64,000 nt of DNA from assembly GCA_964652615.1 (NCBI GenBank), contig CAZZAT010000001.1, positions 87,081 to 151,080 of the forward strand, in the 5' to 3' direction. Source of the DNA: an uncultured Candidatus Saccharibacteria bacterium. GTDB lineage: Bacteria; Patescibacteriota; Minisyncoccia; Phycocordibacterales; Phycocordibacteraceae. The notes beneath the pieces were generated by a model. That model had not been told where the DNA came from. It saw only the letters and a list, made by a program, of their open reading frames with translations, and did no database searches. Positions 8,327 through 64,000 of this stretch are shown piece after piece (position 1 is the stretch's first letter; each line of letters begins with the position of its first letter). The position numbers were made by a program, and so were the translations under genes.

Positions 8327-9980
8327 TCAAGACGGTCCCCGACGGCGCGAGCGCCTTTGAGGAGGTGAGTTTCTTTAAGGCTCCGTAGAGGTCTTTAAAC
8401 TCCTTATTCTCCAGAAGCGCAAGCACCGACGCCGAGACGATAAGGCCCACCATACCAGCCGCAAGGCCTTGCGTGAAGACAGCAAGAAGTGATGAGAGCG
8501 GCGCAAGGTTCCCCATAAGGGCAAGGAGGCCGTAGGCGGCAGAGGCACCTACAAGACCTGCGCCTGCTGCCTCAAAGAAAGGACGTGAGAGCGAGGAAGC
8601 GACGCCAGGGGCGACAACCGGCAAGGTCGCAAGCGCAAGTGCTCCCATGACAAGCTGGCCGAGCGTTGCACCAAGCGCAATGAATACAATATCGGTCCCT
8701 GCTATCCCTTCAATGCGAAGCAATACTTCGATGAAGTTCGCAAGAAATGGGTGGGACTTTGCTGCAGAAAGAAGTGCAACAGCAGAAGCGGCAGACACTG
8801 CAAGGCCTGCGATTTGGATGATGAGTGGATTCCAGGAACGGCGTGCGGCATAGAAGGCACGGGAAGCAAGGAGTACCAGTCCTTGGGCGACAAGACCGAT
8901 GATAAGGACGCCAAGCACTGCGGCCGAGAGCCTTGTTGCATCCCAGTCAAAGGCGCCAGTACCAAATATGGCACGTACAAGATGAGCGCGAAGCACGATG
9001 GTAAGAAGTGCTGCAACGGTGGACCAGAAGATAAGATGGCGCGCAGCTGCAGATAATGTTGCACAGAATGCTTCAGAGCGTTTTGCTCCAGCTTCTTTTG
9101 CAAGCACGGGAAACGCAGCAGTTGCATACGATGCGCCGATAAGTGCAAGCGGTACCGCAGCAAGGTTTCCTGCAAGCGAGAAGACAGCAACAGAGCCAGT
9201 TGCAACCGCAGCTGCAAGAGAAGTCAGTACCAGCGTCGTTACCGCACCCATAGAAAGCGCGAGCGAACGCGGCACAGAATCTTTAATAATATCGATAAGA
9301 ATCTTCTTTGAGGGAATAACGAGCTTGGGAAGCAGTTTTGCTTCAACCACGATAGGTACGTGAATCAAGAAGTGCGCGAGCGCGCCAAAGACAACGCCTG
9401 CGCCTATGCCCACAAGACCGAGTGACGGGTAGAGAAATACCGCGCCTAGGATAATGCCAACGTTGTAGAGCACCGGAGAGAGCGCAAAGAGTACGAAGCG
9501 CCGTTCCACCTGCGTAACAGACGTAAGGATTCCTGAAAAACCAAGGAGAAGCGGCTGCAGCAGCAGAAGTTGCGCAAGAATAACAAAGTCTTTGTTCCCT
9601 GCATACGAAGGAAAAAATACTTGCAGCAAGGACGGCATCAAGACTGCGAGAAGAAGTGCAACCGCGCCGCCGACGATAAGTAGGAACGAAGCTGCATGCG
9701 AGAGCGTGCGGCGCGCCTCCTCTTTCGTTTCAGAAGTAATGCGCGGAATGATGACGTAGGCAGACACTAAGGACGCAATGAGCGCGAACATAAGGTCCGG
9801 AATGCGAAACGCCGCGAAATAGAGATCGAGCGTTGCAGATGCGCCAAACGCGTGCGCGAAGATGCGGTCGCGAAGGAGCGCGAGCACTTGGGAGACCAGT
9901 GTGAGTCCTGCCAACAAGTACGCCGCCTGATGTAGGCCGCGTACTGATGTGCTTAGTGTCCGTAAGATGCCCTGGACCAT
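8307..9980 (-). CDS. murJ: Lipid II flippase MurJ (MviN family)
   Basis: 557-aa protein with 14 predicted TM helices and a MurJ-like N-terminus (LLAGLTLVSQVLALLRDRIFAHAFGAS..DLYFAAFRIPD). Confidence 0.85.
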   Translation of the reverse strand: MVQGILRTLSTSVRGLHQAAYLLAGLTLVSQVLALLRDRIFAHAFGASATLDLYFAAFRIPDLMFALIASLVSAYVIIPRITSETKEEARRTLSHAASFLLIVGGAVALLLAVLMPSLLQVFFPSYAGNKDFVILAQLLLLQPLLLGFSGILTSVTQVERRFVLFALSPVLYNVGIILGAVFLYPSLGLVGIGAGVVFGALAHFLIHVPIVVEAKLLPKLVIPSKKILIDIIKDSVPRSLALSMGAVTTLVLTSLAAAVATGSVAVFSLAGNLAAVPLALIGASYATAAFPVLAKEAGAKRSEAFCATLSAAARHLIFWSTVAALLTIVLRAHLVRAIFGTGAFDWDATRLSAAVLGVLIIGLVAQGLVLLASRAFYAARRSWNPLIIQIAGLAVSAASAVALLSAAKSHPFLANFIEVLLRIEGIAGTDIVFIALGATLGQLVMGALALATLPVVAPGVASSLSRPFFEAAGAGLVGASAAYGLLALMGNLAPLSSLLAVFTQGLAAGMVGLIVSASVLALLENKEFKDLYGALKKLTSSKALAPSGTVLNDQAHP

Positions 9981-10008
9981 TTTCTCTTTCTCCAGGGAAG
10001 CGAAAGCG

Positions 10009-12411
10009 CTACTGTGCTTCCGGTTCAGCTGCAGGCTCTTCTACCGGAGGTGCTGGAATGCCGAGCGTGCGGAGCCGTGAAGCGGGGAATGGATTCCTGC
10101 CCGCTTCAACCGCAGCCAAGTCATCTGCAACTGCCGCAGCATTCTCTTCAGAGAGTGCGGCAACCTGGCGAAGCTGTTCTGCTGCCTGTTCGTAGTTGCC
10201 TTGTACTGCGTACATAGCACCGAGGAAGAAGCGGGCGTTTGCGTACTGCGGATTAAGTTCAACCGCGCGAGCAAATGCTTCTATTGCTCCTGCCGTGTCC
10301 CCTGTACCTGAACGAAGGAGGCCTACTTGGAAGATGACTGACGGCTCGTTTGGTGCAAAGTATGCCGCTGCTTCTGCTGCTTGAAGCGCTTCTGCTGCCT
10401 TGCCAAGCTGAATTTCAAGCTGGGAAAGAAGAAGAATTGCAGGGATGTAGTCGCGCTTTGCAGCAATCGATTCAAGAAGGTACGTCTCTGCAGCTTCGCC
10501 GTTTCCTTGCGCTATTTCAAGCTGCGCGAGGATATACGGAATCGATGGGTTTGTTGGGGTAAGTGCTCCTGCACGCATGAATGCATCCTTTGCGCTTTCG
10601 TAGGCACCCTCGATACCAAGGGGCAACACTGCCTGATATACGCCGCCAAGCGTTGTCCAGTTCTGGTAGTTATTTGGGCCGATGCGCGTCGCTTCAAGGC
10701 CCGCAGCAACACTTCCTGAAAGCGCTCCTTGGAACTGCTGCTGTGCAGACGAAGGAGGGATAGAGTCATCAGACGCGATGCGGCGCATGCGCTCCATGCC
10801 AATTGCTACCGCAAGCTGATACCCGCGTTCTGTAGGTGCAAACGAGAGTGAGCGTGTGAGTGCTGTTTCCGCTTTATCGACATCTCCTGAAGAGAGCGCA
10901 ACTGCTGCTTCGCCGTATGCGAGCGTTCCCATGTAGCGAGCGAGCACACCGTAGCTTGCAGCAACCGAACCGATAAGAAGCAAGGTAAGACCAAAGACAA
11001 TTGCAAATCCAATGCGCGGGCTCTTGGAGAAGACGATGCCGCGTTCGGCTTTCCCTGGTGCATGACGCATCGAAGAAACGAAGACGCCGATGAAGAGGAA
11101 TCCGAGCGAAAGCACCACGATGCCAGGAGTTGCGAAGAACGCGAGAACAAGCACGTAGAGTGCGCCGATGTAGGACGCTATCGATACGAAGCGTAGGTAG
11201 CGCTCTTCAGGAAGGCGCAGAAGAAGTGTACGCGCACCGGCATAGATGAAGAGGCCTATAAGGACGAGCCACGCAATGACTCCTACGATGCCTGTGGTTA
11301 CAAACGACGTTGGAATAGTGCCAATGCCCGAAGCAAAGTCGACGTTCCAGAAGACGGTGTCATTGAGGGAACGATCGCGGAACTCGAGCCACTTGGCGCC
11401 GAAGCTGCCAGGTCCAGAACCGAACAAAGGCGAAGACGCGAGTGTGTGTGTTCCAACCGAGAACGTCGACTGCCACGAAGGGCGCACATCAAGGGAGTTC
11501 ACGCCAAGGGATGAGGCAATCGAGTTTCCTATCGTCGAACCGCCAAGAAGGAAGAAGAGGGAGACCAAGAGAACAACGAGGGGACCGCCGAGCGTCTGGC
11601 GCCCCGTATCAGATGCAAGATCAGCAGCGGGAGCAACATCGTCAAAGTCAGCATCGCCTACATGTCCGCGACGATGCAAGACCGCTTCAATAAAGAGAGC
11701 GAGGGCACTAAGGCCGACCAAGACCCACACCATCGTTGAATTCACGAGCGCAAGACCAAGGAAAGCAAGCACCATGAACACCCAGAGCGCAATGACGCGA
11801 CTCCTAGAGAGTGTAAGGAAACGCAGCGCCATAAGCGAAAGCACGATGCCAAGACCTGCCATCATGCCAAAGTCCGTGAATCCACCAGCAAGATTCAAGA
11901 CTGGAGAGATGCCTGCGCCCATATTTGATGCGATGAGTATCACTATCTGCGCGACAACAGTAACGCCAAGCGCAAGCGCAACCGAAAGGAAGAAGAAGCG
12001 ATAGTCAGATGCTTTGCGGAGCACGAGCGCCGCCATCGTTGCAAGCAATGCCATTAAGACAACAAATCCGAGCGTATCTACTTCAAACTCTGTGCCAAAG
12101 AATGCGCGCGAGAGCTCCATGCCCGAAAAGAGCGCAGAGAGGCCGTAGGCGATAGGTACAAGCCAGACAGCACCAAGAAGCGGAAGCGGCGGAATAGCGA
12201 CGCTGCCGCGTACAAGCCTGCCCACCACAAAAGCGATGAAAGTGAGAAGCGCGCCTACGGCGAATATCGCAGACTTCGTTCCGTAGAAAGAAACGCTGCT
12301 AAGAGGGATAAGTGCTACTGCTCCGAGAAATGCCGTTGCCCCGAGAAGCCATACGGCTGCAGTGTCAAACGAAAAGCGTCGAAGCGTTTTAGTATCATTC
12401 ATGCTGGTCAT
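10009..12411 (-). CDS. Membrane protein with a multi-TM N-terminal domain (O-antigen-ligase/Wzy-like) and C-terminal TPR repeats
   Basis: The ORF track extends it to 12645, but that N-terminal extension reads through the RNase P RNA gene; the likely true start is ATG at 12411 (MTSMNDTKTL...). N-terminal half has ~12 TM helices; C-terminal ~300 aa are TPR-like (AYESAKDAF, IEAFARAVELNPQYANARFFLGAMY). Confidence 0.6.
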   Translation of the reverse strand: MTSMNDTKTLRRFSFDTAAVWLLGATAFLGAVALIPLSSVSFYGTKSAIFAVGALLTFIAFVVGRLVRGSVAIPPLPLLGAVWLVPIAYGLSALFSGMELSRAFFGTEFEVDTLGFVVLMALLATMAALVLRKASDYRFFFLSVALALGVTVVAQIVILIASNMGAGISPVLNLAGGFTDFGMMAGLGIVLSLMALRFLTLSRSRVIALWVFMVLAFLGLALVNSTMVWVLVGLSALALFIEAVLHRRGHVGDADFDDVAPAADLASDTGRQTLGGPLVVLLVSLFFLLGGSTIGNSIASSLGVNSLDVRPSWQSTFSVGTHTLASSPLFGSGPGSFGAKWLEFRDRSLNDTVFWNVDFASGIGTIPTSFVTTGIVGVIAWLVLIGLFIYAGARTLLLRLPEERYLRFVSIASYIGALYVLVLAFFATPGIVVLSLGFLFIGVFVSSMRHAPGKAERGIVFSKSPRIGFAIVFGLTLLLIGSVAASYGVLARYMGTLAYGEAAVALSSGDVDKAETALTRSLSFAPTERGYQLAVAIGMERMRRIASDDSIPPSSAQQQFQGALSGSVAAGLEATRIGPNNYQNWTTLGGVYQAVLPLGIEGAYESAKDAFMRAGALTPTNPSIPYILAQLEIAQGNGEAAETYLLESIAAKRDYIPAILLLSQLEIQLGKAAEALQAAEAAAYFAPNEPSVIFQVGLLRSGTGDTAGAIEAFARAVELNPQYANARFFLGAMYAVQGNYEQAAEQLRQVAALSEENAAAVADDLAAVEAGRNPFPASRLRTLGIPAPPVEEPAAEPEAQ

Positions 12412-12486
12412 ACCTAATGCCCTAGTAATATAGGCAGTATACCAAGAGTGGTTGGAGCTCGTTTGAAAGGGCAGTGGATAGGCATG

Positions 12487-12515
12487 AAAACACCCGCCGT
12501 ATAGGCGGGTGTTTT
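12487..12515 (-). terminator. Intrinsic terminator of rnpB
   Basis: On the minus-strand RNA: AAAACACCCGCC-UAUAC-GGCGGGUGUUUU followed by CAUG, directly after the RNase P RNA 3' end. Confidence 0.65.
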
Positions 12516-12521
12516 CATATA

Positions 12522-12866
12522 GGTTGGACTGGCACGATAAGCCGAGTTCTGTCGTGGACGACCATCTATCTAGGCGTTCGATTACTCGAACGCTCAAGCG
12601 GCGCTCCGGCATACTTCTTTCGAAATTACCGGTACGGCCTTGCACAGAAGTAAGGATTTTGCCGTTTCATTCCGGCATCGCTGCCGGCACGCTCTGCGTG
12701 AGAGCCTCTATTCTTTCGAAGTTGAGCGTTTCTGTTCGCACCTCGCGCCTTGCGGCGGACGGGTATTACCCGCTACCCATGCTCCGCACGTACGTGCGGC
12801 TGTGCTCGGACTTTCCTCAAAGCTTCTCTGTAGACAGGGAAGTTCGCGGTCGTCTGTGCCAGTCCG
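12522..12866 (-). ncRNA. rnpB: RNase P RNA, bacterial type A
   Basis: Minus strand carries the P4 motif GGAAAGTCCGAGCACAGCC and a 3' region CTAGATAGATGGTCGTCCACGACAGAACTCGGCTTATCGTGCCAGTCC nearly identical to E. coli M1 RNA (CCTAGATGAATGACTGTCCACGACAGAACCCGGCTTATCGGTCAGTT); P1 pairs GGACTGGCAC with GTGCCAGTCC. Confidence 0.85.
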
Positions 12867-12872
12867 AGAATT

Positions 12873-12901
12873 ATTATATCACATTTCTAGGGAACAGGAA
12901 G
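12873..12901 (-). promoter_or_regulatory. Putative sigma-70 promoter of rnpB
   Basis: Minus strand reads TTCCTG-N17-TGTGATATAAT (extended -10) about 7 nt upstream of the inferred P1 5' end; overlaps the 3' end of the DUF192 gene. Confidence 0.5.
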
Positions 12902-13342
12902 CTTGAGTCGCGTACCCACTTCCCAGCCATTTCGCGCCGCTTCCCCTGCGCGTGTTTCAAGAACGTAGCGTATGGGAACAGGTGAGGTAAAGCTTTGCGG
13001 AAATGTATCAGGAGAGACGCTCTGTTCAATTCCTTTAATGGTGCCGTCATCAGCAAGCCAGATGATATCGATTGGTACGAGCATGTCTTTCATCCAGAAT
13101 CCGTAGCGTGCTGGGTCCGGAAACACAAAAAACATGCCGTAGTCATGCGGGATATCGCTGCGAAAAGAGAGTCCGCGCGCACGATCTTCGTGTGAAGTAA
13201 CAATTTCAAATTGAAAATTGGCAGGGAAGTCAGTGGGGGAATTACGAGATACGGGAGACGGTGTGTAGAGGAAATACGCACCGATAAAGAGAAGAAGTAC
13301 GAAGACAACAAGCGCAGCGATGGTGCGTGAGGGGGTCGTCAT
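12887..13342 (-). CDS. DUF192 family protein (COG1430)
   Basis: N-terminal TM anchor then the DUF192 core (RARGLSFRSDIPHDYGMFFVFP...GFWMKDMLVPIDIIWLADDG). Confidence 0.65.
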   Translation of the reverse strand: MTTPSRTIAALVVFVLLLFIGAYFLYTPSPVSRNSPTDFPANFQFEIVTSHEDRARGLSFRSDIPHDYGMFFVFPDPARYGFWMKDMLVPIDIIWLADDGTIKGIEQSVSPDTFPQSFTSPVPIRYVLETRAGEAARNGWEVGTRLKLPVP

Positions 13343-13441
13343 GGGTTATAGAGTACACCCTAGGGGCAGAAAAGAAGCGACTCCCCTACCCTTCAATCTC
13401 GGCTTGACGAGTTATCCACAGGTACGTTTTATGAAGACGGG

Positions 13442-13528
13442 CGGAGGCGGAGAGATTCGAACTCTCGAGAGCCTTTCGACCCTGCCACCTTTCCAAGGTG
13501 GTGCACTAGACCACTATGCGACGCCTCC
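13442..13528 (-). tRNA. tRNA-Ser (anticodon GGA)
   Basis: Reverse complement GGAGGCGTCGCATAGTGGTCTAGTGCACCACCTTGGAAAGGTGGCAGGGTCGAAAGGCTCTCGAGAGTTCGAATCTCTCCGCCTCCG; anticodon loop TTGGAAA; long variable arm typical of Ser. Confidence 0.8.
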
Positions 13529-13550
13529 GTGCGTTGCTTGTTTATAGCAC

Positions 13551-14447
13551 TTACTCTGCTTTGGTACCAAGCAATCGCTCAATACGCTTCTCTACCGGCG
13601 GATGCGTTGCAAAGAGTCCGTTAATTGCCTTCCCCGCTTTTGCACCAAAAGGATCTCCGATAAAGAGGTGTGCGGTTGCGTGATTGGCACGCTGCATAGG
13701 TGCGCTATGCGCACTAATCTTTCTAAGTGCAGAAGCGAGTCCTTCAGGGTAACGCGTAAGAAGAGCGCCTGAAGCGTCAGCGAGATATTCACGCCTTCGT
13801 GAGATAGCGAGCTGGATGAGCTGGGCTGCGATTGGTGCGAGAATAATGCCAACAATGGCAAGTATCGCGAAAAGCGCTCCTGCTTTCCCGCTGTCCCTGT
13901 CCCCTCCTCCGAACATCGAAGCTCGAAGGAAGATGTCGGCAATAATCGCGAGAAAGCCTGCAAGCACGACTGCAACCGTCATAACAAGCATGTCGCGGTT
14001 CTTTATGTGTGAGAGCTCATGTGCAATCACGCCTTCAAGTTCGGTGCGGTCAAGAACAGCAAGAAGACCGGTGGTCGCAGCAACAACCGCATGCTTTTCA
14101 TCGCGTCCTGTTGCAAAAGCGTTTGGCGCAGGATCATTGATAACATAGAGCTTGGGCATGGGAAGCCCCGCGGTGATAGCAAGGTTTTCCGTAACGGTAT
14201 AGAGATCGAAGAACTCTTCGCGGGAAGCTGGTTTTGCTCCTGTCATTGAGAGCACGAGCTTATCGGAGAACCAATAGCTTCCGACATTCATAACAAGCGC
14301 GAATGCAACCGCGATATAGAGAATGGACGGGTCTCCGTAATAGAAGGAGACGCCCCATCCGACAAGAATGACCAGCAGAAAGAACCCGAGCATGAGGCCC
14401 CAGGTTCTAAGCAGATTATTACTTCGCTCTTGGTAGAGATTCGCCAT
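13551..14447 (-). CDS. htpX: M48 zinc metalloprotease HtpX
   Basis: HELSHIKNRD (HExxH) motif, N-terminal TM pair, HtpX-like overall layout; immediately downstream of LemA (conserved LemA-HtpX pair). Confidence 0.85.
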   Translation of the reverse strand: MANLYQERSNNLLRTWGLMLGFFLLVILVGWGVSFYYGDPSILYIAVAFALVMNVGSYWFSDKLVLSMTGAKPASREEFFDLYTVTENLAITAGLPMPKLYVINDPAPNAFATGRDEKHAVVAATTGLLAVLDRTELEGVIAHELSHIKNRDMLVMTVAVVLAGFLAIIADIFLRASMFGGGDRDSGKAGALFAILAIVGIILAPIAAQLIQLAISRRREYLADASGALLTRYPEGLASALRKISAHSAPMQRANHATAHLFIGDPFGAKAGKAINGLFATHPPVEKRIERLLGTKAE

Positions 14448-52918: not shown

Positions 52919-54013
52919 ATGGGAAATCAAAAACTACAGAAAATCGTCTCTTCTACTCTTTTTGATAGAAGAAAATCAAATAAAAGCGGTTCTTTCACTA
53001 TGATTGATCTGTTCGCAGGAATAGGAGGGATTCGTCTTGGTTTTGAAAGTATTGGGGGTGAATGTGTCTTCACTTCTGAATGGGACGAATCTGCAAAAAA
53101 AACATACCAAGCAAACTTCTCGGAGATACCCTACGGAGATATCACTCAGATAGCTCCAGAAGATATTCCATCTTTCGATATACTTCTTGCAGGCTTTCCA
53201 TGTCAGCCCTTCTCTCAAGCGGGAAGAAAACTCGGACTTGCAGATACACGTGGAACGCTATTCTTTGATATTGCCAAAATTGTTGAACACCATAAGCCAA
53301 AAGTAGTATTTCTTGAAAATGTAAAAAGGTTCAAGAGTCATGATGGAGGTAGGACTTTCAAAACTATTACTTCCATTCTTGAGGATTTTGGATACGAGAT
53401 ACATGCCAAAGTGCTCAATGCGAAAGATTTTGGAGTTCCTCAAAATAGAGAAAGAATCTATATCATAGGATTCCTTGGTAAAACGAATTTCTCTTTCCCA
53501 AAACCGTCCGGTAAGCAAACGTTATTGGGAGATATCTTGGAACAGAAACCCGATGATAAGTATACGATTTCTGATACTCTCTGGGCCGGACACCAAAGAA
53601 GGAAAAAGGAACATTTGGAGAAAGGAAACGGATTCGGATACTCCCTCTTCGATAAGAAATCCCCCTATACAAGTACGATTTCTGCACGATACTACAAAGA
53701 CGGCTCTGAAATCCTTATAAAGCAAAAAAAGGGAAACCCCAGAAAACTTACTCCTCGTGAAGCTGCCCGCCTCCAAGGTTTCCCAGATTCCTTTATTGTC
53801 TCAACAAGCGATACACAAGCATACAAACAATTCGGGAATAGTGTTGCCGTACCTGTTATAAAAGCACTCGCTAAAGAAATCAAAAAAGCTTTACTGGACA
53901 TGGAGGTCGCTTCTGGTAAGGCACAATCTATCAACTTAGACAAACTACGAGAAACGAGCGTACAGGAAGCGAGAAAGAGTATCCCTTCTCGATTAGTAGG
54001 AGTCAGTCACTAA
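52919..54013 (+). CDS. DNA (cytosine-5)-methyltransferase (type II modification enzyme)
   Basis: Motif I DLFAGIGG, motif IV GFPCQPFS, motif VI ENV and motif VIII QFGNSVAVP; low-GC coding region. Confidence 0.9.
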   Translation: MGNQKLQKIVSSTLFDRRKSNKSGSFTMIDLFAGIGGIRLGFESIGGECVFTSEWDESAKKTYQANFSEIPYGDITQIAPEDIPSFDILLAGFPCQPFSQAGRKLGLADTRGTLFFDIAKIVEHHKPKVVFLENVKRFKSHDGGRTFKTITSILEDFGYEIHAKVLNAKDFGVPQNRERIYIIGFLGKTNFSFPKPSGKQTLLGDILEQKPDDKYTISDTLWAGHQRRKKEHLEKGNGFGYSLFDKKSPYTSTISARYYKDGSEILIKQKKGNPRKLTPREAARLQGFPDSFIVSTSDTQAYKQFGNSVAVPVIKALAKEIKKALLDMEVASGKAQSINLDKLRETSVQEARKSIPSRLVGVSH

Positions 54014-54781
54014 AGAATCCCAATACTTATTATCTGCACGCCAATTAGCATACGGACGTGCGTTCCCATCATACATACCACTATCGAAAAAGATGATGCC
54101 TTTTCGAACGCCGTCAATCCATGTATTGAACGTAATGGGATTACCAAAAACTATCTTTGTGTAAACTCCATTCGCATCTTTTTGACATTTAAACCAACCT
54201 AGTTTGTTAAATTTGTCCTCAACGCGCTTTTTCATCATCTCTGCCTCCCAGACAGCAAGTATGAGGTTATCCTTCTGGAGTGGTCGTGGTACGATTTTTT
54301 GTTTATTTGGACGTTGATCTTTAGAATATGAATAGACAGCATAGATAGTTCCTTGTGCATCAACTTTCAGTTTTTGACCAAAAGAATTCCACTTATTAAT
54401 TTTTGGCGCCGGTTTCCCTGACCAAGAGTATCTATTTTCTTTTGATGAATTCGGAGCTCCGAAAATCATCAAGAATTTCTTTCGGTCGAGATTGTATTCA
54501 TTTCCTTTTCTATAGATCCGCAATTTTGCACTCGGAGACCAATCACCGAAAGTGGTTTTGCTTGTGGTGTTGTTTTTCATCTCAAATCCATCAAGATCTG
54601 GCGCGTTCCTGCCGTTATGTTTTATTCCCATTTGTTTTTCAAGCCAATGACCACCCTTGCCATCATGAGATACATGGGCCTCTGATGTATCAGGGACTTT
54701 GCCTTTCACTTTCTGAATGAAAAGCTTAACTATTCTCCGCTTAATCTGCGCAGAGGTCTCTTTCTTGATGGACTTTGCCAT
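53993..54781 (-). CDS. Putative type II restriction endonuclease partnering the m5C methyltransferase
   Basis: Convergent and 3'-overlapping (21 nt) with the methyltransferase gene; Lys/Asp/Glu-rich 262-aa protein with no other assignable function; low GC. The ORF-track start at 54799 is a TTG; ATG at 54781 (MAKSIKK) is preferred. Any resemblance to ScrFI/LlaMI-type enzymes is from memory only. Confidence 0.5.
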   Translation of the reverse strand: MAKSIKKETSAQIKRRIVKLFIQKVKGKVPDTSEAHVSHDGKGGHWLEKQMGIKHNGRNAPDLDGFEMKNNTTSKTTFGDWSPSAKLRIYRKGNEYNLDRKKFLMIFGAPNSSKENRYSWSGKPAPKINKWNSFGQKLKVDAQGTIYAVYSYSKDQRPNKQKIVPRPLQKDNLILAVWEAEMMKKRVEDKFNKLGWFKCQKDANGVYTKIVFGNPITFNTWIDGVRKGIIFFDSGMYDGNARPYANWRADNKYWDSLVTDSY

Positions 54782-54838
54782 ATACGGCGATGGTAGCAAA
54801 TATCTAAGAAATCGCCCATGGGAGCGATTTCTTAGATA

Positions 54839-55066
54839 CTATTTCTTCCAGTCGCGTATCGTAATCGTTTTAGTCTTCTCGTTTACGTCGAGCTTGAGCT
54901 TCTGGCGTTCCTTCCACTTGAAAGACTTTATAACTGCGCGCGGGAGCGTAATCGCATAGCTTGCGCCCCCGGATACTTTGGTGAGGGAGCGTATGTCGCT
55001 ATTTACTTCAGCACGGCGTCCGGATGCGGGCCGCTTTGCTTTTTTCTTGGTGGTTTTCTTTTTCAT
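54839..55066 (-). CDS. AbrB/MazE/SpoVT-fold (looped-hinge helix) DNA-binding protein, possible controller of the restriction-modification operon
   Basis: C-terminal SGGASYAITLPRAVIKSFKWKERQKLKLDVNEKTKTITI matches the swapped-hairpin AbrB/MazE domain; basic KKK-rich N-terminus; directly upstream of and co-oriented with the restriction endonuclease gene; start moved to the internal Met. Confidence 0.45.
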   Translation of the reverse strand: MKKKTTKKKAKRPASGRRAEVNSDIRSLTKVSGGASYAITLPRAVIKSFKWKERQKLKLDVNEKTKTITIRDWKK

Positions 55067-55177
55067 GCGTATAGCATAGCACTTGAAAATATGTATATTC
55101 GATGAAATAGCGCGCAGCAATTGCGCAAGATGCAAAACGGGCCCGGCTTTCGCCGGACCCGAATAGAAAAGAACGTT

Positions 55178-59139: not shown

Positions 59140-59709
59140 CTAACTCCTTACTACATCGAGGAGTTCAGGGAACTCACTCGTTCCCATATCCCCCTGGGTA
59201 TAGTGTCCGTGGTTTGGCAGATCTATTACTTCCCCACCTAGCGCCTCATGAAATACACGAAGACTCTCTTTCCCGTCCTCTTCTTCGTCGTTCGATGTAA
59301 ACATTACAATCTCTCCCACACGCTCTGAAATTCCTTTGTCTATTTCATATCCGTAGTATCCCTCACGCAACTGGTCTCCAATGCCAGGAATCTTCCAAGG
59401 AGCGACAAGAACGAGCTTGGCAACCTTTTGTTTTGTATCGCCCAACCAACGAACAAGAAAAGCTGCTCCGCAACTATGTCCTATGAGGATGTCATTTTCT
59501 CCGATAGGATTCTTCTCAAATTCTACTTTAAACGCTTGGTAGTCTGGATACCAAGGATTTGGCATGAGAGGCGTATTTACCTCTATTCCTTCCTTTTGGA
59601 ATTCTCCTTTGAGCCACGGAATCCAGTGTTTATCGTAAGTGCGAGTTTCTGAATTCATCGCTTTCTCAACATCAGAAGGACAACCGTGAAGAACGTGTAT
59701 CGTTCTCAT
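59140..59709 (-). CDS. Alpha/beta-fold serine hydrolase, RBBP9/YdeN family
   Basis: ILIGHSCGAAF (GxSxG nucleophile elbow) and LPNHGHY catalytic His region; ~190 aa as for this family. Confidence 0.68.
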   Translation of the reverse strand: MRTIHVLHGCPSDVEKAMNSETRTYDKHWIPWLKGEFQKEGIEVNTPLMPNPWYPDYQAFKVEFEKNPIGENDILIGHSCGAAFLVRWLGDTKQKVAKLVLVAPWKIPGIGDQLREGYYGYEIDKGISERVGEIVMFTSNDEEEDGKESLRVFHEALGGEVIDLPNHGHYTQGDMGTSEFPELLDVVRS

Positions 59710-60023
59710 ATGACTTCAATCGGGTATACGTCCGTTGCTGGTTCCTCGTATGGATGTGCTTCTCTTATTGCCTTAAGCACATCTTGCAGTTTGTTTTCCT
59801 CACAGACTGTCTCAATGCGATCTTCTGAAACCTCTTCGAGTTTCCCTACAGAACCAATGGTTGGATTTGCTCCTTTTTCAGGCTTGAAACGACCAGTTCC
59901 TTTCAGGGTAAAAGTGCAGTGGGAATAGTTTCCGATCTTTCCTGCGCCAGCATTACCTATGACTTCACGGATTTTGTCCGCATCGTTTTCCGGAACATAG
60001 ACTACGACTTTGTACCTTTTCAT
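59706..60023 (-). CDS. Small NIF3-like (C-terminal domain) / YqfO-like protein
   Basis: KVVVYVPENDADKIREVIGNAGAGKIGNYSHCTF...GSVGKLEEVSEDRIETVCEE...AHPYEEPATDVYPIE pattern. Confidence 0.45.
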   Translation of the reverse strand: MKRYKVVVYVPENDADKIREVIGNAGAGKIGNYSHCTFTLKGTGRFKPEKGANPTIGSVGKLEEVSEDRIETVCEENKLQDVLKAIREAHPYEEPATDVYPIEVI

Positions 60024-60025
60024 AC

Positions 60026-60457
60026 TTATGACTGGGGTGGAATGCCGCGACGCTCTAGATCCTCTTTAGTTTCAAATTCAAGGTAGTTTTGTGTTAGTTC
60101 TTCTCCTTTTTTTATATCTCGGCTAGCAACTAAATAGGCGTCAGTATGTTCTGGGTCCTGAGTAACGGAACCTTCATACGCGTGATTAATGAAGTGGGTC
60201 ACGTCAAAATCTACGTGCCATTTCTGACTAGGCTCATCAAAGAACCCCCACCAAAGAATTTCTTGCTTCTCCTTTTCGTCCAATGAATCAAATTCTTCTT
60301 GGGTGATATTCACATCAAGAAGTGGGCTAGGAGTATAGATTAGTTGACCCTTCTCGATATCTTGATCAGCGAAAAGACCAACACCATGATACGGCGAGGT
60401 ATTTAGTTTGTACTTGATGTGAATCATGGTGAAAGTATACCAATGTTCTGAATTCAA
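60026..60457 (-). CDS. SET-domain protein (putative lysine methyltransferase)
   Basis: GVGLFADQDIEKGQLIY and HFINHAYEGSV...AYLVASRDIKKGEELTQNY match the SET N- and C-terminal signature regions (NHxC-like and ELxxxY). Confidence 0.58.
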   Translation of the reverse strand: MNSEHWYTFTMIHIKYKLNTSPYHGVGLFADQDIEKGQLIYTPSPLLDVNITQEEFDSLDEKEKQEILWWGFFDEPSQKWHVDFDVTHFINHAYEGSVTQDPEHTDAYLVASRDIKKGEELTQNYLEFETKEDLERRGIPPQS

Positions 60458-60600: not shown

Positions 60601-61353
60601 TTAGACCTGCGGACGCTTCCGACATTCCCCTTCTACATAGTCGATTAAAGACTCGGTTCCTTTGAGTAGTTTCATAAAATCAACTTCGAACAAGCGAGCA
60701 TATACGGAATTCTCTCCACGACTTGCTCCGTATGAGCGGTCGCGAGTAATGTGAACTAACTCGTCACGCAACTTCTTTAGCTCGACATAGTCCTGCCAGA
60801 ATGACTGCGAAGCTGGAGAGGTGAAAGCATAGTGGCCAGGAAGGACGCTCTTTAGTTTTTCGTCTAATGACAGGAAGAGGACTTGCTCTATCGAAAGCAC
60901 CACATCCCTTTTAACTTGGAGTCGCATTCCCCACAACTTCAATACAGTTACATCTTTTCGCACTACATAGTGTAGGTCTTTGGCGAGCTCGATATGCAGA
61001 TTAGCGATAAACTCGATGGTCGCGTGGAGCAGGATAATTGCGATGCTTCCCGTCTCAAAAAAATCTAGTGCACTGTCCTTATCTCCAAAAGCATCACCGA
61101 CAGTAGGGTCTTTCGAGTTCATTGGACGGCGACTCGCCTGTGCGGCGGCTTTCTTCTTTAGACATTCGTCAATGAGTGCTTCAGCGCGATTAAGGTACAT
61201 CCCGTCGACCTTTGGCGCATAGAACCATGTGGCGATGCCAGTATCTTTTTCGGTAAATTTATCTATGAAAGCAATCGGTGCACCGACAGCGTGCTCAAAG
61301 CGTCCAATTTTCGCTGGCTTTGCTAACGTTGTCTCAACAGTTCTCGGTCTCAT
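60601..61353 (-). CDS. Hypothetical protein with a HEPN-like Rx4H motif
   Basis: 250 aa; C-terminal KKLRDELVHITRDRS fits the HEPN Rx4-6H RNase motif; otherwise unassigned. Confidence 0.45.
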   Translation of the reverse strand: MRPRTVETTLAKPAKIGRFEHAVGAPIAFIDKFTEKDTGIATWFYAPKVDGMYLNRAEALIDECLKKKAAAQASRRPMNSKDPTVGDAFGDKDSALDFFETGSIAIILLHATIEFIANLHIELAKDLHYVVRKDVTVLKLWGMRLQVKRDVVLSIEQVLFLSLDEKLKSVLPGHYAFTSPASQSFWQDYVELKKLRDELVHITRDRSYGASRGENSVYARLFEVDFMKLLKGTESLIDYVEGECRKRPQV

Positions 61354-61358
61354 TCAAA

Positions 61359-61721
61359 TCAGCCTTTTATTTTCTTAACAATCCACTTCCATACCGGACG
61401 CCAGTTACCGCGAATATCATCGGCGATCTTCCTGCTTTCGTTTATCGCCCAGGCAGCAGCTATACCGAATGTGGAGAGGGCCAGAGCGGCAGCGTACGGA
61501 TTGCCGATCATTTCCACGAACTTCTCTGTACCCATAATCCCCTGTACCGATACGAGAAGGATAAGGCCAAAAAAGACGCTCTGGCCAAAGTATTCGAAAT
61601 CCCCTGGGCGTCCGAGCTTCGCGAAGTGACGATAGGACCACGCAAAGACAAACCCTGGCAGAACAAACAGGAAGAGATGGAATAGGTCTATCGGGGCCTC
61701 AGGCATGTCGTAATGGTACAC
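61359..61721 (-). CDS. Hypothetical three-TM membrane protein (120 aa)
   Basis: Three hydrophobic helices and a basic C-terminus; immediately downstream of the 250-aa protein (6-nt gap). Confidence 0.45.
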   Translation of the reverse strand: MYHYDMPEAPIDLFHLFLFVLPGFVFAWSYRHFAKLGRPGDFEYFGQSVFFGLILLVSVQGIMGTEKFVEMIGNPYAAALALSTFGIAAAWAINESRKIADDIRGNWRPVWKWIVKKIKG

Positions 61722-61797
61722 CTACCGTCAAATCCTGCCATTTACCATAAAACGAGAAGGCCCCGCTGCCGGGACCTTCTACACTTTCTACACCCAA

Positions 61798-62184
61798 TCA
61801 ATATTTGGGTACCTCCTTGCCTGCGTTCTTCAGCTCAAGCTGCTCCTCGATATTGATGAGCCGGAGCTGTAAATCGTGCAGGTACTGCATGTGATGCTTC
61901 GGGTGCCACTTCCGACTCGCGCGCTCGAGCGTGAACCGTATGGCCCATTTCTTACGTTCCAGCACATCCGCTCGAAGCATCTCTTCGGCAAGCGGGACTT
62001 CAATCCGCTCATATACCTCGTCCACCTTCCGCGCGAATGCTGGATCATTGAGACGCTTGTTGTAGTAGCTCTTCCGATCTAGGTCTAGTGCCTTGCATGT
62101 GTGTGCAATGGAACCGAAGTACTCATGCAATACCTGAGGAAACACTTCCCACACCGAGTCTGATATTTTCTTTCCCTGTGACAT
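61798..62184 (-). CDS. Hypothetical HTH-like protein (128 aa)
   Basis: Putative HTH AHTCKALDLDRKSYYNKRL; preceded by a perfect palindrome. Confidence 0.42.
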   Translation of the reverse strand: MSQGKKISDSVWEVFPQVLHEYFGSIAHTCKALDLDRKSYYNKRLNDPAFARKVDEVYERIEVPLAEEMLRADVLERKKWAIRFTLERASRKWHPKHHMQYLHDLQLRLINIEEQLELKNAGKEVPKY

Positions 62185-62188
62185 AAGC

Positions 62189-62211
62189 CAATACTGTTAG
62201 ATCTGCTAACA
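62189..62211. promoter_or_regulatory. Perfect 9-bp inverted repeat TACTGTTAG-ATCTG-CTAACAGTA (candidate operator)
   Basis: Lies 5 nt upstream of the start codon of the HTH-like gene. Confidence 0.4.
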
Positions 62212-62370
62212 GTAGGGCTCTCGATGAACCTTTTGGGCAAGGACGAGAGTTCTCCCACAAATTCTCCTTAACCTTTAGGGGCGTTCGGTCGCGCGACTTA
62301 CGCGATTATCGTTCGCTTGCGGGCCTGGGGTCTACAGGTTATCCGGCTTTGTATCCCCATTATACCTTGG

Positions 62371-62604
62371 TCATTCTTCCGGCTTCAGTCCCTTCTGGCG
62401 GAAGCAGGAATCGTAGAGGAGTTTGTAGGTGGCCTCAGCTCCAGAAAGGCTGCGCTGCTCTGAGGCCGCCTCCCGAGCCTTGGCATCGCATTCCTTACGC
62501 ACCTCCCCTGGGTAAATGACGAGGCGACCGAATGCCATAAGCGCGATAACAACCACCACTACGGCGGCAAGAATCCAGAAGACTATTTTCATCCATTTCT
62601 TCAT
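62371..62604 (-). CDS. Small membrane-anchored protein (77 aa)
   Basis: N-terminal TM helix; overlaps the upstream gene's stop region by a small gap. Confidence 0.4.
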   Translation of the reverse strand: MKKWMKIVFWILAAVVVVVIALMAFGRLVIYPGEVRKECDAKAREAASEQRSLSGAEATYKLLYDSCFRQKGLKPEE

Positions 62605-62606
62605 AC

Positions 62607-63230
62607 CTATGCGCAGAGGTTCTCATTTAGCTCATTCATCAGGTTCTGCATTTCTGGCGTACTTCGCAGTGCCTCGATGGCCTTATCCATATCCTCACTA
62701 ACAGCGTCGATTTCGTCCTTTTTGGCTTCTAGTTTCTCGCGTGCTGCCTCAAACTCGTCTGGCCTATCTGCCGCCTTGAGCAGGTTGTATTGCTCGATGA
62801 GTTCCTTGCGTTCCTCTTGGAGCGGTTTCATCTTGGCGTCGAATGGCGCTCGTACCATCTCTTCCTTTGCGCTGATCTGTGAACTCAACTCCGAGCACAT
62901 TTCGCGGCGCGCTTCGTTCGCGCGCGTCCCTTCGGTCTCTGAAAGCACGGTATCCGTCTTGAGGCGGAGATTCTCATTCTCAAGCTTGAGCCGTTCTATT
63001 TCGAGTTCAGTCTCACTCTTGTTCTCGGAAACTTCTTCGCTCAGCTGAGCGTGCTCATCTTCGAGAACAGAGACCCTACCGATCAATGAGTCGACTTGGT
63101 TCGCGATGATAGCGATTGCCTCGTCAGGAGATTTTCCTTGTATGAGGGAGTATGTAAACGAACTTCCTGCCGCGATTGCGGGTACGCCGAAGAGTATTCC
63201 TAAAACAATTCCCAGTATTTGTAATTTCAT
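62607..63230 (-). CDS. Secreted coiled-coil protein (207 aa)
   Basis: Signal peptide then extended heptad-rich Glu/Lys/Leu sequence. Confidence 0.5.
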   Translation of the reverse strand: MKLQILGIVLGILFGVPAIAAGSSFTYSLIQGKSPDEAIAIIANQVDSLIGRVSVLEDEHAQLSEEVSENKSETELEIERLKLENENLRLKTDTVLSETEGTRANEARREMCSELSSQISAKEEMVRAPFDAKMKPLQEERKELIEQYNLLKAADRPDEFEAAREKLEAKKDEIDAVSEDMDKAIEALRSTPEMQNLMNELNENLCA

Positions 63231-63511
63231 AGCTCACTGTATGGCTTAGCCAATAACAGTGGCGGGTAACACAAAACCCGCCACCAGAGAGGAGCCTTAC
63301 GGACATCCCCTACCAGGGTTTCCCCTGATAACACAACGAAGGCCCTGATGACGGGTTTTCTATCTTCGTTGTGTTTTTAGACCATGCCCGAGGAATCCCT
63401 CGAGTTTAGGTCCTGCCCATTACAGGCCTTTATTCAGTTGTAGTCCTGTGATGCCCAGAAAGGCACCACTTCTAAAGTGTAGCCCAAGATGGTTCCTGCG
63501 CGAAGAGGGGT

Positions 63512-64000
63512 TTAAAAAGTGACCCGCGTCAGGCTAACTGCCTCTCCCTTTACAAGACTCGTGAAGGTTAGTAAATCCGCCTCAGTGATTACTAAGTTAT
63601 ATCCTTGTGTGTAACTCTTTCCTTGAGTGAGGCTTATGAGCCTCACTCCACCCTGGCTGAATTTCTTTACGGGATCTTGCGAGTATTTTGCCATATCCCC
63701 TTCGTGATGTACCAAGCAATTCCTTATTAGTTTGAGCTCTTCAAGGTTGCCACTAAAAGCACCTAGAGCCTCCCAATACGTCCAAAGCATTATGCAGTAA
63801 GCATGGCACATTCGAACGTAATCATTTATGACGATTGGAGTAAACGCCGTACTGGAACCAGAGACAACGAGTGATGCGTTTTGGGTAGATGGTTGAAGTT
63901 GAATTGGAGACCTTAATTCAAGAACAGATTTATTTGGCTGAATATAGTCTGAATAGAATCTCTCCAGACTTTCGATACAGGCTTTGAATCGAATCTCGAC
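63512..64000 (-). CDS. Partial CDS (N-terminus beyond the window) with a C-terminal HEPN-like RNxxxH motif
   Basis: The reading frame stays open from 63811 to the window edge (the ORF track starts it at an internal Met); LKLIRNCLVHHEGD fits the HEPN Rx4H motif. Confidence 0.42.
   Translation of the reverse strand, partial: VEIRFKACIESLERFYSDYIQPNKSVLELRSPIQLQPSTQNASLVVSGSSTAFTPIVINDYVRMCHAYCIMLWTYWEALGAFSGNLEELKLIRNCLVHHEGDMAKYSQDPVKKFSQGGVRLISLTQGKSYTQGYNLVITEADLLTFTSLVKGEAVSLTRVTF

Follow-up and report, generated by a model that had tools for sequence, protein, structure and literature searches.

Two candidate HEPN protein families in a probable LOOT-associated mobile element of an uncultured Candidatus Saccharibacteria bacterium

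HEPN RNases are effectors of many toxin-antitoxin (TA), abortive-infection and CRISPR systems, and HEPN-MNT systems often reside on mobile DNA. We examined a 64,000-nucleotide stretch (the window) of an uncultured Candidatus Saccharibacteria bacterium (assembly GCA_964652615.1, contig CAZZAT010000001.1, positions 87,081 to 151,080 of the forward strand). Its last 3.4 kb encode a 250-residue protein (HEPN250), a copy of the structured RNA LOOT and, at the very edge, a 165-residue protein (HEPN165); every gene between 56 and 64 kb lies on the minus strand. Positions beyond the edge derive from L002, a Logan contig of the same organism that reaches 4.2 kb past the window end (window coordinate = 68248 - L002 coordinate) and are called virtual; other loci are likewise cited by L number. 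On balance, we favor the interpretation of this region as a mobile element with a large serine recombinase divergent from LOOT and with variable cargo, which carries two unrelated and uncatalogued HEPN proteins. HEPN250 and HEPN165 are new families of a well-known toxin type and not a new kind of system.

Among described systems, HEPN-MNT (HepT/MntA; SO_3166/SO_3165) resembles HEPN165 in its operon of two tightly coupled genes, the second of which encodes a small HEPN protein with Rx4H. Structurally, both HEPN250 and HEPN165 match SO_3166 (5yep_B) best, although a Foldseek search of the PDB returned nothing for HEPN165. Unlike MNT proteins, the partner of about 435 residues encoded upstream of HEPN165 has no NTP_transf_2 or Polbeta domain in Pfam or PADLOC, and its profile has no PDB match; neutralization by AMPylation is therefore not expected. 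Neither HEPN protein matches DUF86/HepT (PF01934), and HEPN250 has no partner at all. A second group of relatives (AbiU2, AbiV, AbiD/F, AbiJ, RiboL-PSP-HEPN, Apea-like, Cthe_2314 and Ymh) likewise joins an accessory N-terminal domain to a C-terminal HEPN domain with R[ND]x3H, and such stand-alone families are similar in their patchy spread and in their phage and defence-island neighborhoods. In contrast, HEPN250 matches none of their Pfam models, RiboL-PSP-HEPN being touched at E 1e-3 by 2 of 57 relatives, and its N-terminal beta-domain and beta-hairpin insert are not described for the abortive-infection HEPN families, as far as tested. Classical type II TA modules consist of two small co-translated genes, one for a small, labile, DNA-binding antitoxin that neutralizes the toxin. 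Of these traits, co-translation agrees with the 4-nt gene overlap seen here; the partner, however, has 436 residues and no helix-turn-helix (HTH), ribbon-helix-helix or AbrB domain. As far as the available text of PMC7157771 goes, the cassettes of Tn3 transposons are comparable in placing two TA-type genes, HEPN included, directly beside a serine recombinase and a regulatory region; here, however, the enzyme is not a Tn3 resolvase but a large serine integrase that has Recombinase and Zn-ribbon domains, and the element is of the LOOT type and belongs to Patescibacteria. Among catalogued defence systems (PADLOC-DB 2.0.0), HEPN250, its three-transmembrane (three-TM) neighbor and the partner have no match, and HEPN165 has one at E 0.02 to RTasHEPN. 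A defence-system search of the kind that the original prediction had recommended thus placed HEPN250, HEPN165 and the partner in no catalogued system.

HEPN domains are defined as four-helix up-down bundles of two alpha-hairpins in which helix 3 ends with Rx4-6H and the R is followed by a polar residue; helix 2 supplies another conserved residue, acidic or polar, near this motif and typically as Ex3[KR] (PMC3710099). The same source describes HEPN RNases as metal-independent endoribonucleases that leave 2',3'-cyclic phosphate products, and reports that domains without catalysis typically lose Rx4-6H. In both proteins studied here, R-x4-H stands at the C-terminal end of a helix, before a loop, and the R is followed by D or N, which fits this description. 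AlphaFold2 models and alignments agree with the bundle and motif definition of the superfamily for both. The Rx4H pattern alone is not significant, as it occurs in 39 of the 120 window open reading frames (ORFs) of at least 100 residues (about 0.46 per 250 residues); R[NDH]x3H occurs in 4 of the 120. The two motifs are significant because R and H are invariant across each family. Weak family-level profile matches are all to HEPN models (RTasHEPN, Cas13a, Csx1 and RiboL-PSP). The original prediction had described both proteins as fitting the HEPN RNase signature and had named non-HEPN folds and chance motifs as the contrary outcome. The assignment withstood this comparison, since the models are HEPN-like and R and H do not vary.

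HEPN250 carries its motif, as predicted from the window alone, in the segment KKLRDELVHITRDRS (KKLRDELVH), with R196-D-E-L-V-H201 forming the R-x4-H. A word-indexed search found a single homologue at 56% identity, and an exhaustive HMMER search with a two-sequence profile (E<=1e-3) returned 183 cluster representatives, mostly of 235-280 residues. Across 57 aligned homologues of about 20-25% identity, N118, R196 and H201 are invariant, with no others; E114, K166, W186, L192 and P47 are nearly so. The AlphaFold2 model built from this alignment (pLDDT 95.8, pTM 0.89) begins with a six-stranded beta-domain (residues 1-45) and continues with core helices 49-73, 92-123, 186-200 and 226-246. A beta-hairpin (129-153) and a helix (163-175) are placed between the second and third core helices. 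Rx4H lies at the end of helix 186-200, and helix 92-123 presents E114 and N118 as E-x3-N. The predicted active site combines E114/N118 of helix 2 with R196 to H201 at the end of helix 3. HEPN250 has no match in Pfam, NCBIfam or PADLOC, and it matches the phage protein family phrog_17113 (PHROGs) at 2e-7; the 57 relatives show scattered matches to HEPN-bearing PADLOC models at E>1e-3. Searches of the PDB by sequence and profile were negative for HEPN250, HEPN165 and the partner. No tblastn match to HEPN250, the partner or the three-TM protein was obtained in phage and plasmid collections, and protein-family searches of viral, genome and metagenome collections gave nothing or alignments too divergent.

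The neighborhoods of HEPN250 relatives are mixed. In L012, a relative stands beside HepT/MNT, Fic and HSDR_N_2 genes (L012 4312-7836), and in L014 it directly follows a Shedu-like SduA_C PD-(D/E)xK nuclease (E 4e-5; L014 2-559). Defence- or TA-type neighbors (SduA_C, HepT/MNT, Fic, HSDR_N) are thus present in 2 of the 4 homologue contexts. Upstream of the closest homologue, in L015, the DNA is non-coding, and a relative in L154 lies 5.3 kb 3' of a LOOT copy. The three-TM protein had been placed 6 nt after HEPN250. The two genes are indeed adjacent; on the minus strand, though, the three-TM gene lies upstream, and the gap is 5 nt. They are co-oriented and probably co-transcribed in this genome, and a terminator-like hairpin parts them from a 128-residue gene. 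Against DUF6338, the three-TM protein scores 22.9 bits (E 7e-5), below the cut-off of 26.5, over profile positions 1-99 of 205. Its gene is absent upstream of the HEPN250 homologues in all four contexts (L009, L012, L014 and L015), and the three-TM protein was consequently rejected as a conserved partner; HEPN250 therefore stands alone, and the linkage is local to this genome. HEPN250 is a stand-alone HEPN protein of a large, patchily distributed family.

HEPN165 was visible in the window as an incomplete ORF, which the original prediction had described as ending with an Rx4H motif. The motif is present, LKLIRNCLVHHEGD with R96-N-C-L-V-H101 in helix 87-102, but it is not terminal, as 60 further residues lead to the stop at 63512. 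L002 supplies the full length of 165 residues and reveals that the window edge removes the first 3 codons alone. All 20 homologues (49-71% identity) lack annotation. Their invariant residues are R96, H101, D63, Y64, R66, E91, C98, G104 and D105, with N97 nearly so, and the best-conserved block, EELRLVRNCLVHHEGD, contains R96, N97 and H101. In the AlphaFold2 model (pLDDT 88.9), the motif stands at the end of helix 87-102 and D63 at the start of helix 63-82, with no clear Ex3[KR]. The sole sub-threshold profile match, RTasHEPN, extends across the motif region, and neither HEPN165 nor the partner has a family in Pfam, NCBIfam, PADLOC or PHROGs beyond noise-level HEPN matches. Membership of HEPN165 in the HEPN fold is quite probable, but the assignment is weaker than that of HEPN250 because of the empty Foldseek search.

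The check for partner genes beyond position 64000, also recommended in the original prediction, was productive. A gene of about 430-455 residues lies upstream of HEPN165 in every context, with a 4-nt overlap in L002, L003, L005, L007 and L008, so the partner and HEPN165 are made together. The 26 clusters of the partner family come from contigs that also carry the HEPN165 family. In the most divergent pair, in L016 (33% identity for the partner, 28% for HEPN165), a gap of 1 nt separates the partner from a 176-residue HEPN165 relative that keeps RNCLVH (hhalign 99.3%). The partner has no domain match in Pfam, PADLOC or a PDB profile search, with HEAT and RICTOR at noise level. Aromatic and aliphatic side chains predominate among its invariant residues, joined by a small number of Arg, Asn and Gln; none is of a catalytic type, and this composition suggests a scaffold or binder more than an enzyme. 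In a second sample (SRR15237806), the partner, HEPN165 and LOOT were assembled alone on a Logan contig of 2171 nt (L013), whose ends lie 95 nt ahead of the partner gene and 50 nt past LOOT; the neighboring genes are on contig L001. These breaks are consistent with strain-level or population variation on both flanks of the pair and LOOT. Next to the pair in L016, within a prophage-like region, positions 8851-14072 harbor a diversity-generating retroelement (RVT_1 + bAvd) together with genes for HEPN_Cthe2314, PIN_3 and Transposase_mut proteins.

Mobile-element context is provided by the gene next to the partner. It encodes a protein with the domains of a large serine recombinase (Resolvase PF00239, 1e-19; Recombinase PF07508, 1e-12; Zn_ribbon_recom PF13408, 3e-7), which matches the phrog_95 integrase at 4e-63 and is 28% identical to the phiFC1 and TP21-L integrases. 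A recombinase adjoins the pair divergently in L002 and L003 and is nearby in L005 and L008, and the L016 region is prophage-like, with terminase, methylases and a diversity-generating retroelement. A third HEPN protein, of the Ymh type, is encoded 3.3 kb past the window end (PF09509, E 9e-21; motif WWRNNLSH) and matches the PADLOC models PD-Lambda-3_B (1e-8) and Aga_HEPN (7e-10). With a serine recombinase and this third HEPN gene just past the window and a LOOT RNA within the interval, the proposal of an accessory island gains weight. The final 3.4 kb of the window are best explained as the portion of an integrated mobile element that lies nearest to its integrase gene.

The LOOT copy in the window agrees with the published family (Weinberg et al. 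2017, PMC5737381) in its full-length match, which scores 79.2 bits, above the gathering threshold of 46.4, over model positions 1-121 of 121 (Rfam RF03000), and in strong covariation. A custom covariance model gives 139.9 bits, and conserved flanks with a 3' hairpin widen the RNA to 63269-63432. It lies on the strand of HEPN165, 100 nt beyond its stop. Taken over 95 copies, paired cells make up 94%, and compensatory changes occur in 31 of 36 pairs; slid controls give about 40%. A survey that combined a covariance model built from pair-linked copies with a pattern scan located LOOT in 93 species-representative genomes, nearly all of them metagenome-assembled genomes of Patescibacteria (loci L080-L172), and on three IMG/VR contigs, two of which carry the same recombinase clade. 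In viral contigs, the short LOOT pattern matches mostly by chance, with 3 real copies among 62 matches.

The arrangement around LOOT is recurrent. In the 93 loci, recombinase homologues lie 5' of LOOT on the opposite strand in 20 of 22 cases, 8 of them beginning within 55-195 nt, and a same-strand gene begins 140-230 nt after LOOT in 56 loci (mode 170-180 nt). Among the 5' neighbors are 9 recombinases and 6 ParB-methyltransferase fusions. The downstream genes are highly diverse and often of surface or membrane type (DUF4352, SHOCT, Ltp lipoprotein, TM2, SNase). The window follows this pattern, with the order recombinase, partner-HEPN165 cassette, LOOT and a secreted 207-residue gene whose start, 180 nt from the LOOT 5' motif, has the modal spacing. 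From this fixed order of recombinase, LOOT and cargo it follows that the HEPN pair occupies the cargo slot of an integrative element; as the pair occurs in 0 of the 93 other LOOT loci, the cassette is optional cargo. The position of LOOT relative to the pair also varies (in L005 it lies 1.2 kb away on the opposite strand, in L008 and L016 the distance is about 6 kb, and the range covered in L003 and L007 contains no copy), and a role of LOOT as a dedicated component of the HEPN pair was rejected on these two grounds.

These observations suggest LOOT as the marker of a class of integrative elements or prophages in which it precedes the cargo slot. The divergent placement of LOOT and recombinase, together with the fixed cargo spacing of about 170-180 nt, means that LOOT could act with or on the recombinase. 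It could control integration or excision, carry or overlap the att site, or provide an antitermination or leader RNA for the cargo. That LOOT is a working part of a Patescibacteria large-serine-recombinase element family, and not a free-standing small RNA, is a speculative proposal to which we give little credence; if it is such a part, the gap between recombinase and LOOT would be a cargo slot into which the partner-HEPN165 cassette was inserted. Three genomes carry two nearby LOOT copies in inverted, convergent-overlapping or tandem arrangement: L080 3600-3758(+)/4275-4432(-), L164 5938-6097(+)/6086-6237(-) and L159 1592-1766(+)/1968-2127(+). Such double copies could be element junctions or tandem insertions. 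The searchable literature, which does not extend to the 2017 supplement (Weinberg et al., PMC5737381), states nothing on the genomic neighbors of LOOT, and the recombinase-LOOT-cargo arrangement may, with some uncertainty, be undescribed so far.

Several other explanations deserve consideration. The HEPN165 pair might serve the element itself, the RNase processing or turning over LOOT or the integrase mRNA and thereby tuning integration or excision. Its location here, between the recombinase gene and LOOT, on the strand of LOOT and 100 nt upstream of it, would suit such a function, as would the serine recombinases next to or near the pair in the four loci named above; in the available text of PMC7157771, TA-like pairs beside the serine recombinase of Tn3 transposons are proposed to belong to the transposition module. 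The variable distance between pair and LOOT argues against it, and the 93 further LOOT loci without the pair indicate that LOOT elements work without it, so we rate this explanation as quite unlikely. One or both proteins could instead be HEPN-fold proteins with no nuclease or toxin role (housekeeping RNA processing or ligand binding) that lie near a recombinase by chance. The HEPN250 homologue in L009, alone between housekeeping genes, would agree with this. However, R and H, together with N118 in HEPN250, never change, whereas non-catalytic HEPN domains typically lose this motif (PMC3710099), and the families are rare and patchy (21 clusters for HEPN165 and 183 for HEPN250 among billions of proteins), unlike housekeeping genes. 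This alternative, too, is unlikely. Finally, the assignment of HEPN165 may be false, in which case the protein would be a generic helical bundle whose RNxxxH block binds a metal or partner or has another role. The empty Foldseek result, the absence of a profile match to any HEPN model at E<0.02, and a long insert located between helices 1 and 2 instead of at the usual helix 2/3 site all point in this direction. Yet the motif is a canonical R-N-x3-H at a helix end, and the one profile that matches below threshold, in the region of the motif, is a HEPN model; we consider a false assignment very unlikely.

Other results weigh against a mobile element carrying two HEPN toxins. The L009 homologue of HEPN250 has Maf, MraZ and RsmH as its surroundings, and neither HEPN protein nor the partner rises above noise in the PADLOC defence models. 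A profile comparison of the two families aligns just the 20-residue motif (hhalign, 20 columns, probability 3%), and kinship beyond the motif was rejected. Unlike classical antitoxins, the partner is 2.6 times as large as the putative toxin and contains neither a DNA-binding nor an MNT domain. No boundaries or att sites of the element could be located, a repeat search in L002 yielding chance-level repeats alone, and the placement of HEPN250 inside the element is therefore tentative. RNase activity, toxicity, a neutralizing or sensing role of the partner and any defence phenotype are inferred.

The mechanism that we propose for the mobile element and its two HEPN proteins builds on the observed folds, motif conservation, gene coupling, mobile-element context and LOOT architecture. 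The element would belong to a type, found mainly in Patescibacteria (the Candidate Phyla Radiation) and on some viral contigs, in which a large serine recombinase is divergent from LOOT and the cargo varies. By analogy with HEPN toxins, HEPN165 would most likely be a metal-independent endoribonuclease, with H101 as the general base and R96/N97 holding the scissile phosphate. The partner of about 435 residues may restrain HEPN165 or sense a trigger, and this co-translated partner would keep the activity off up to the loss of the element or the interference of a phage. The module would then serve the element as an addiction (TA-like) or abortive-infection cassette. Given the size of the partner and its lack of DNA-binding domains, a sensor-plus-effector arrangement of the abortive-infection kind is no less likely than a classical antitoxin. 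HEPN250 is likely also an RNase effector, acting through E114/N118 and R196/H201.

The features of the region are listed in Table 1. The original prediction had described a terminal segment of lower guanine-plus-cytosine (GC) content. This is correct for 59-61 kb (0.44-0.45) and 63-64 kb (0.46), but 61-63 kb (0.51-0.52) resembles the rest of the window. The 128-residue protein, which had been interpreted as an HTH protein with a palindromic operator, has no family at E<0.06, no PDB sequence match and no strong palindrome upstream, and identities as an HTH regulator, a DUF5681 relative or a small-terminase relative were rejected for lack of support from searches. The SET-domain protein (PF00856, E 1.8e-13) and the RBBP9-like hydrolase (Ser_hydrolase PF06821, E 3.6e-10) were correctly recognized. 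Together with a P-II/CutA-like protein of 105 residues, the 143-residue SET protein and the hydrolase form a tight cluster on the minus strand (59140-60457), in which the SET gene stops 2 nt ahead of the 105-residue gene and the latter shares 4 nt with the hydrolase gene. These three genes recur in none of the other loci examined, and nothing was found to tie the SET, hydrolase and 128-residue genes to the island.

Further away, about 6 kb from the HEPN genes, positions 52919-54799 and a small ORF at 54839-55135 have a GC content of 41-42% and resemble a restriction-modification islet. A C5 DNA methyltransferase (PF00145) is convergent there with an LlaMI/MvaI_BcnI-type restriction enzyme, followed by a weakly MazE-like small gene. 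A bacterial class A RNase P RNA (125 bits) occupies 12522-12865 on the minus strand. Because its 3' part extends into an ORF of 878 residues (10009-12645, GTG start), the true start of that gene is probably further downstream.

Table 1. Features of the terminal window region and its virtual extension, with LOOT copies in other loci that carry the pair.
Feature	Position	Strand	Description
HEPN250	60601..61353	-	250 residues; N-terminal beta-domain (residues 1-45) and HEPN four-helix core
Three-TM protein	61359..61706	-	115 residues (120 with GTG at 61721)
Terminator-like hairpin	61755..61780	-	11 pairs, then CGTTTTATGG; 3' of the 128-residue gene
128-residue protein	61798..62184	-	Function unassigned; "HTH protein" of the original prediction
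77-residue protein	62371..62604	-	N-terminal TM helix; directly 3' of the 207-residue gene
207-residue protein	62607..63230	-	N-terminal signal/TM segment and coiled coil; first gene after LOOT
LOOT RNA (Rfam RF03000)	63291..63412	-	Full length
HEPN165	63512..64000	-	Residues 4-165 of 165; predicted start codon 64007-64009, past the window
HEPN165 partner	virtual 64006-65316	-	436 residues; outside the window; 4-nt overlap with HEPN165
Large serine recombinase	virtual 65385-66716	divergent	Outside the window
Zn-ribbon protein	virtual 66719-67288 (L002 960-1529)	+	189 residues; outside the window; precedes the Ymh gene
Ymh-type HEPN	virtual 67292-68134 (L002 114-956)	+	280 residues; outside the window
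LOOT copy in a locus with the pair	L005 6377-6491		Rfam
LOOT copy in a locus with the pair	L008 6352-6475		Rfam
LOOT copy in a locus with the pair	L016 601-722		Rfam

Two HEPN families have thus been missed by current annotation and by defence-finder models. Both are found in elements of Patescibacteria, a group in which little is known of mobile elements and immunity. A fixed partner of about 435 residues, with a fold that is as yet unassigned, would represent a new way of controlling a HEPN toxin. For LOOT, an orphan structured RNA, the locus provides a concrete genomic context in which hypotheses on its function become testable.

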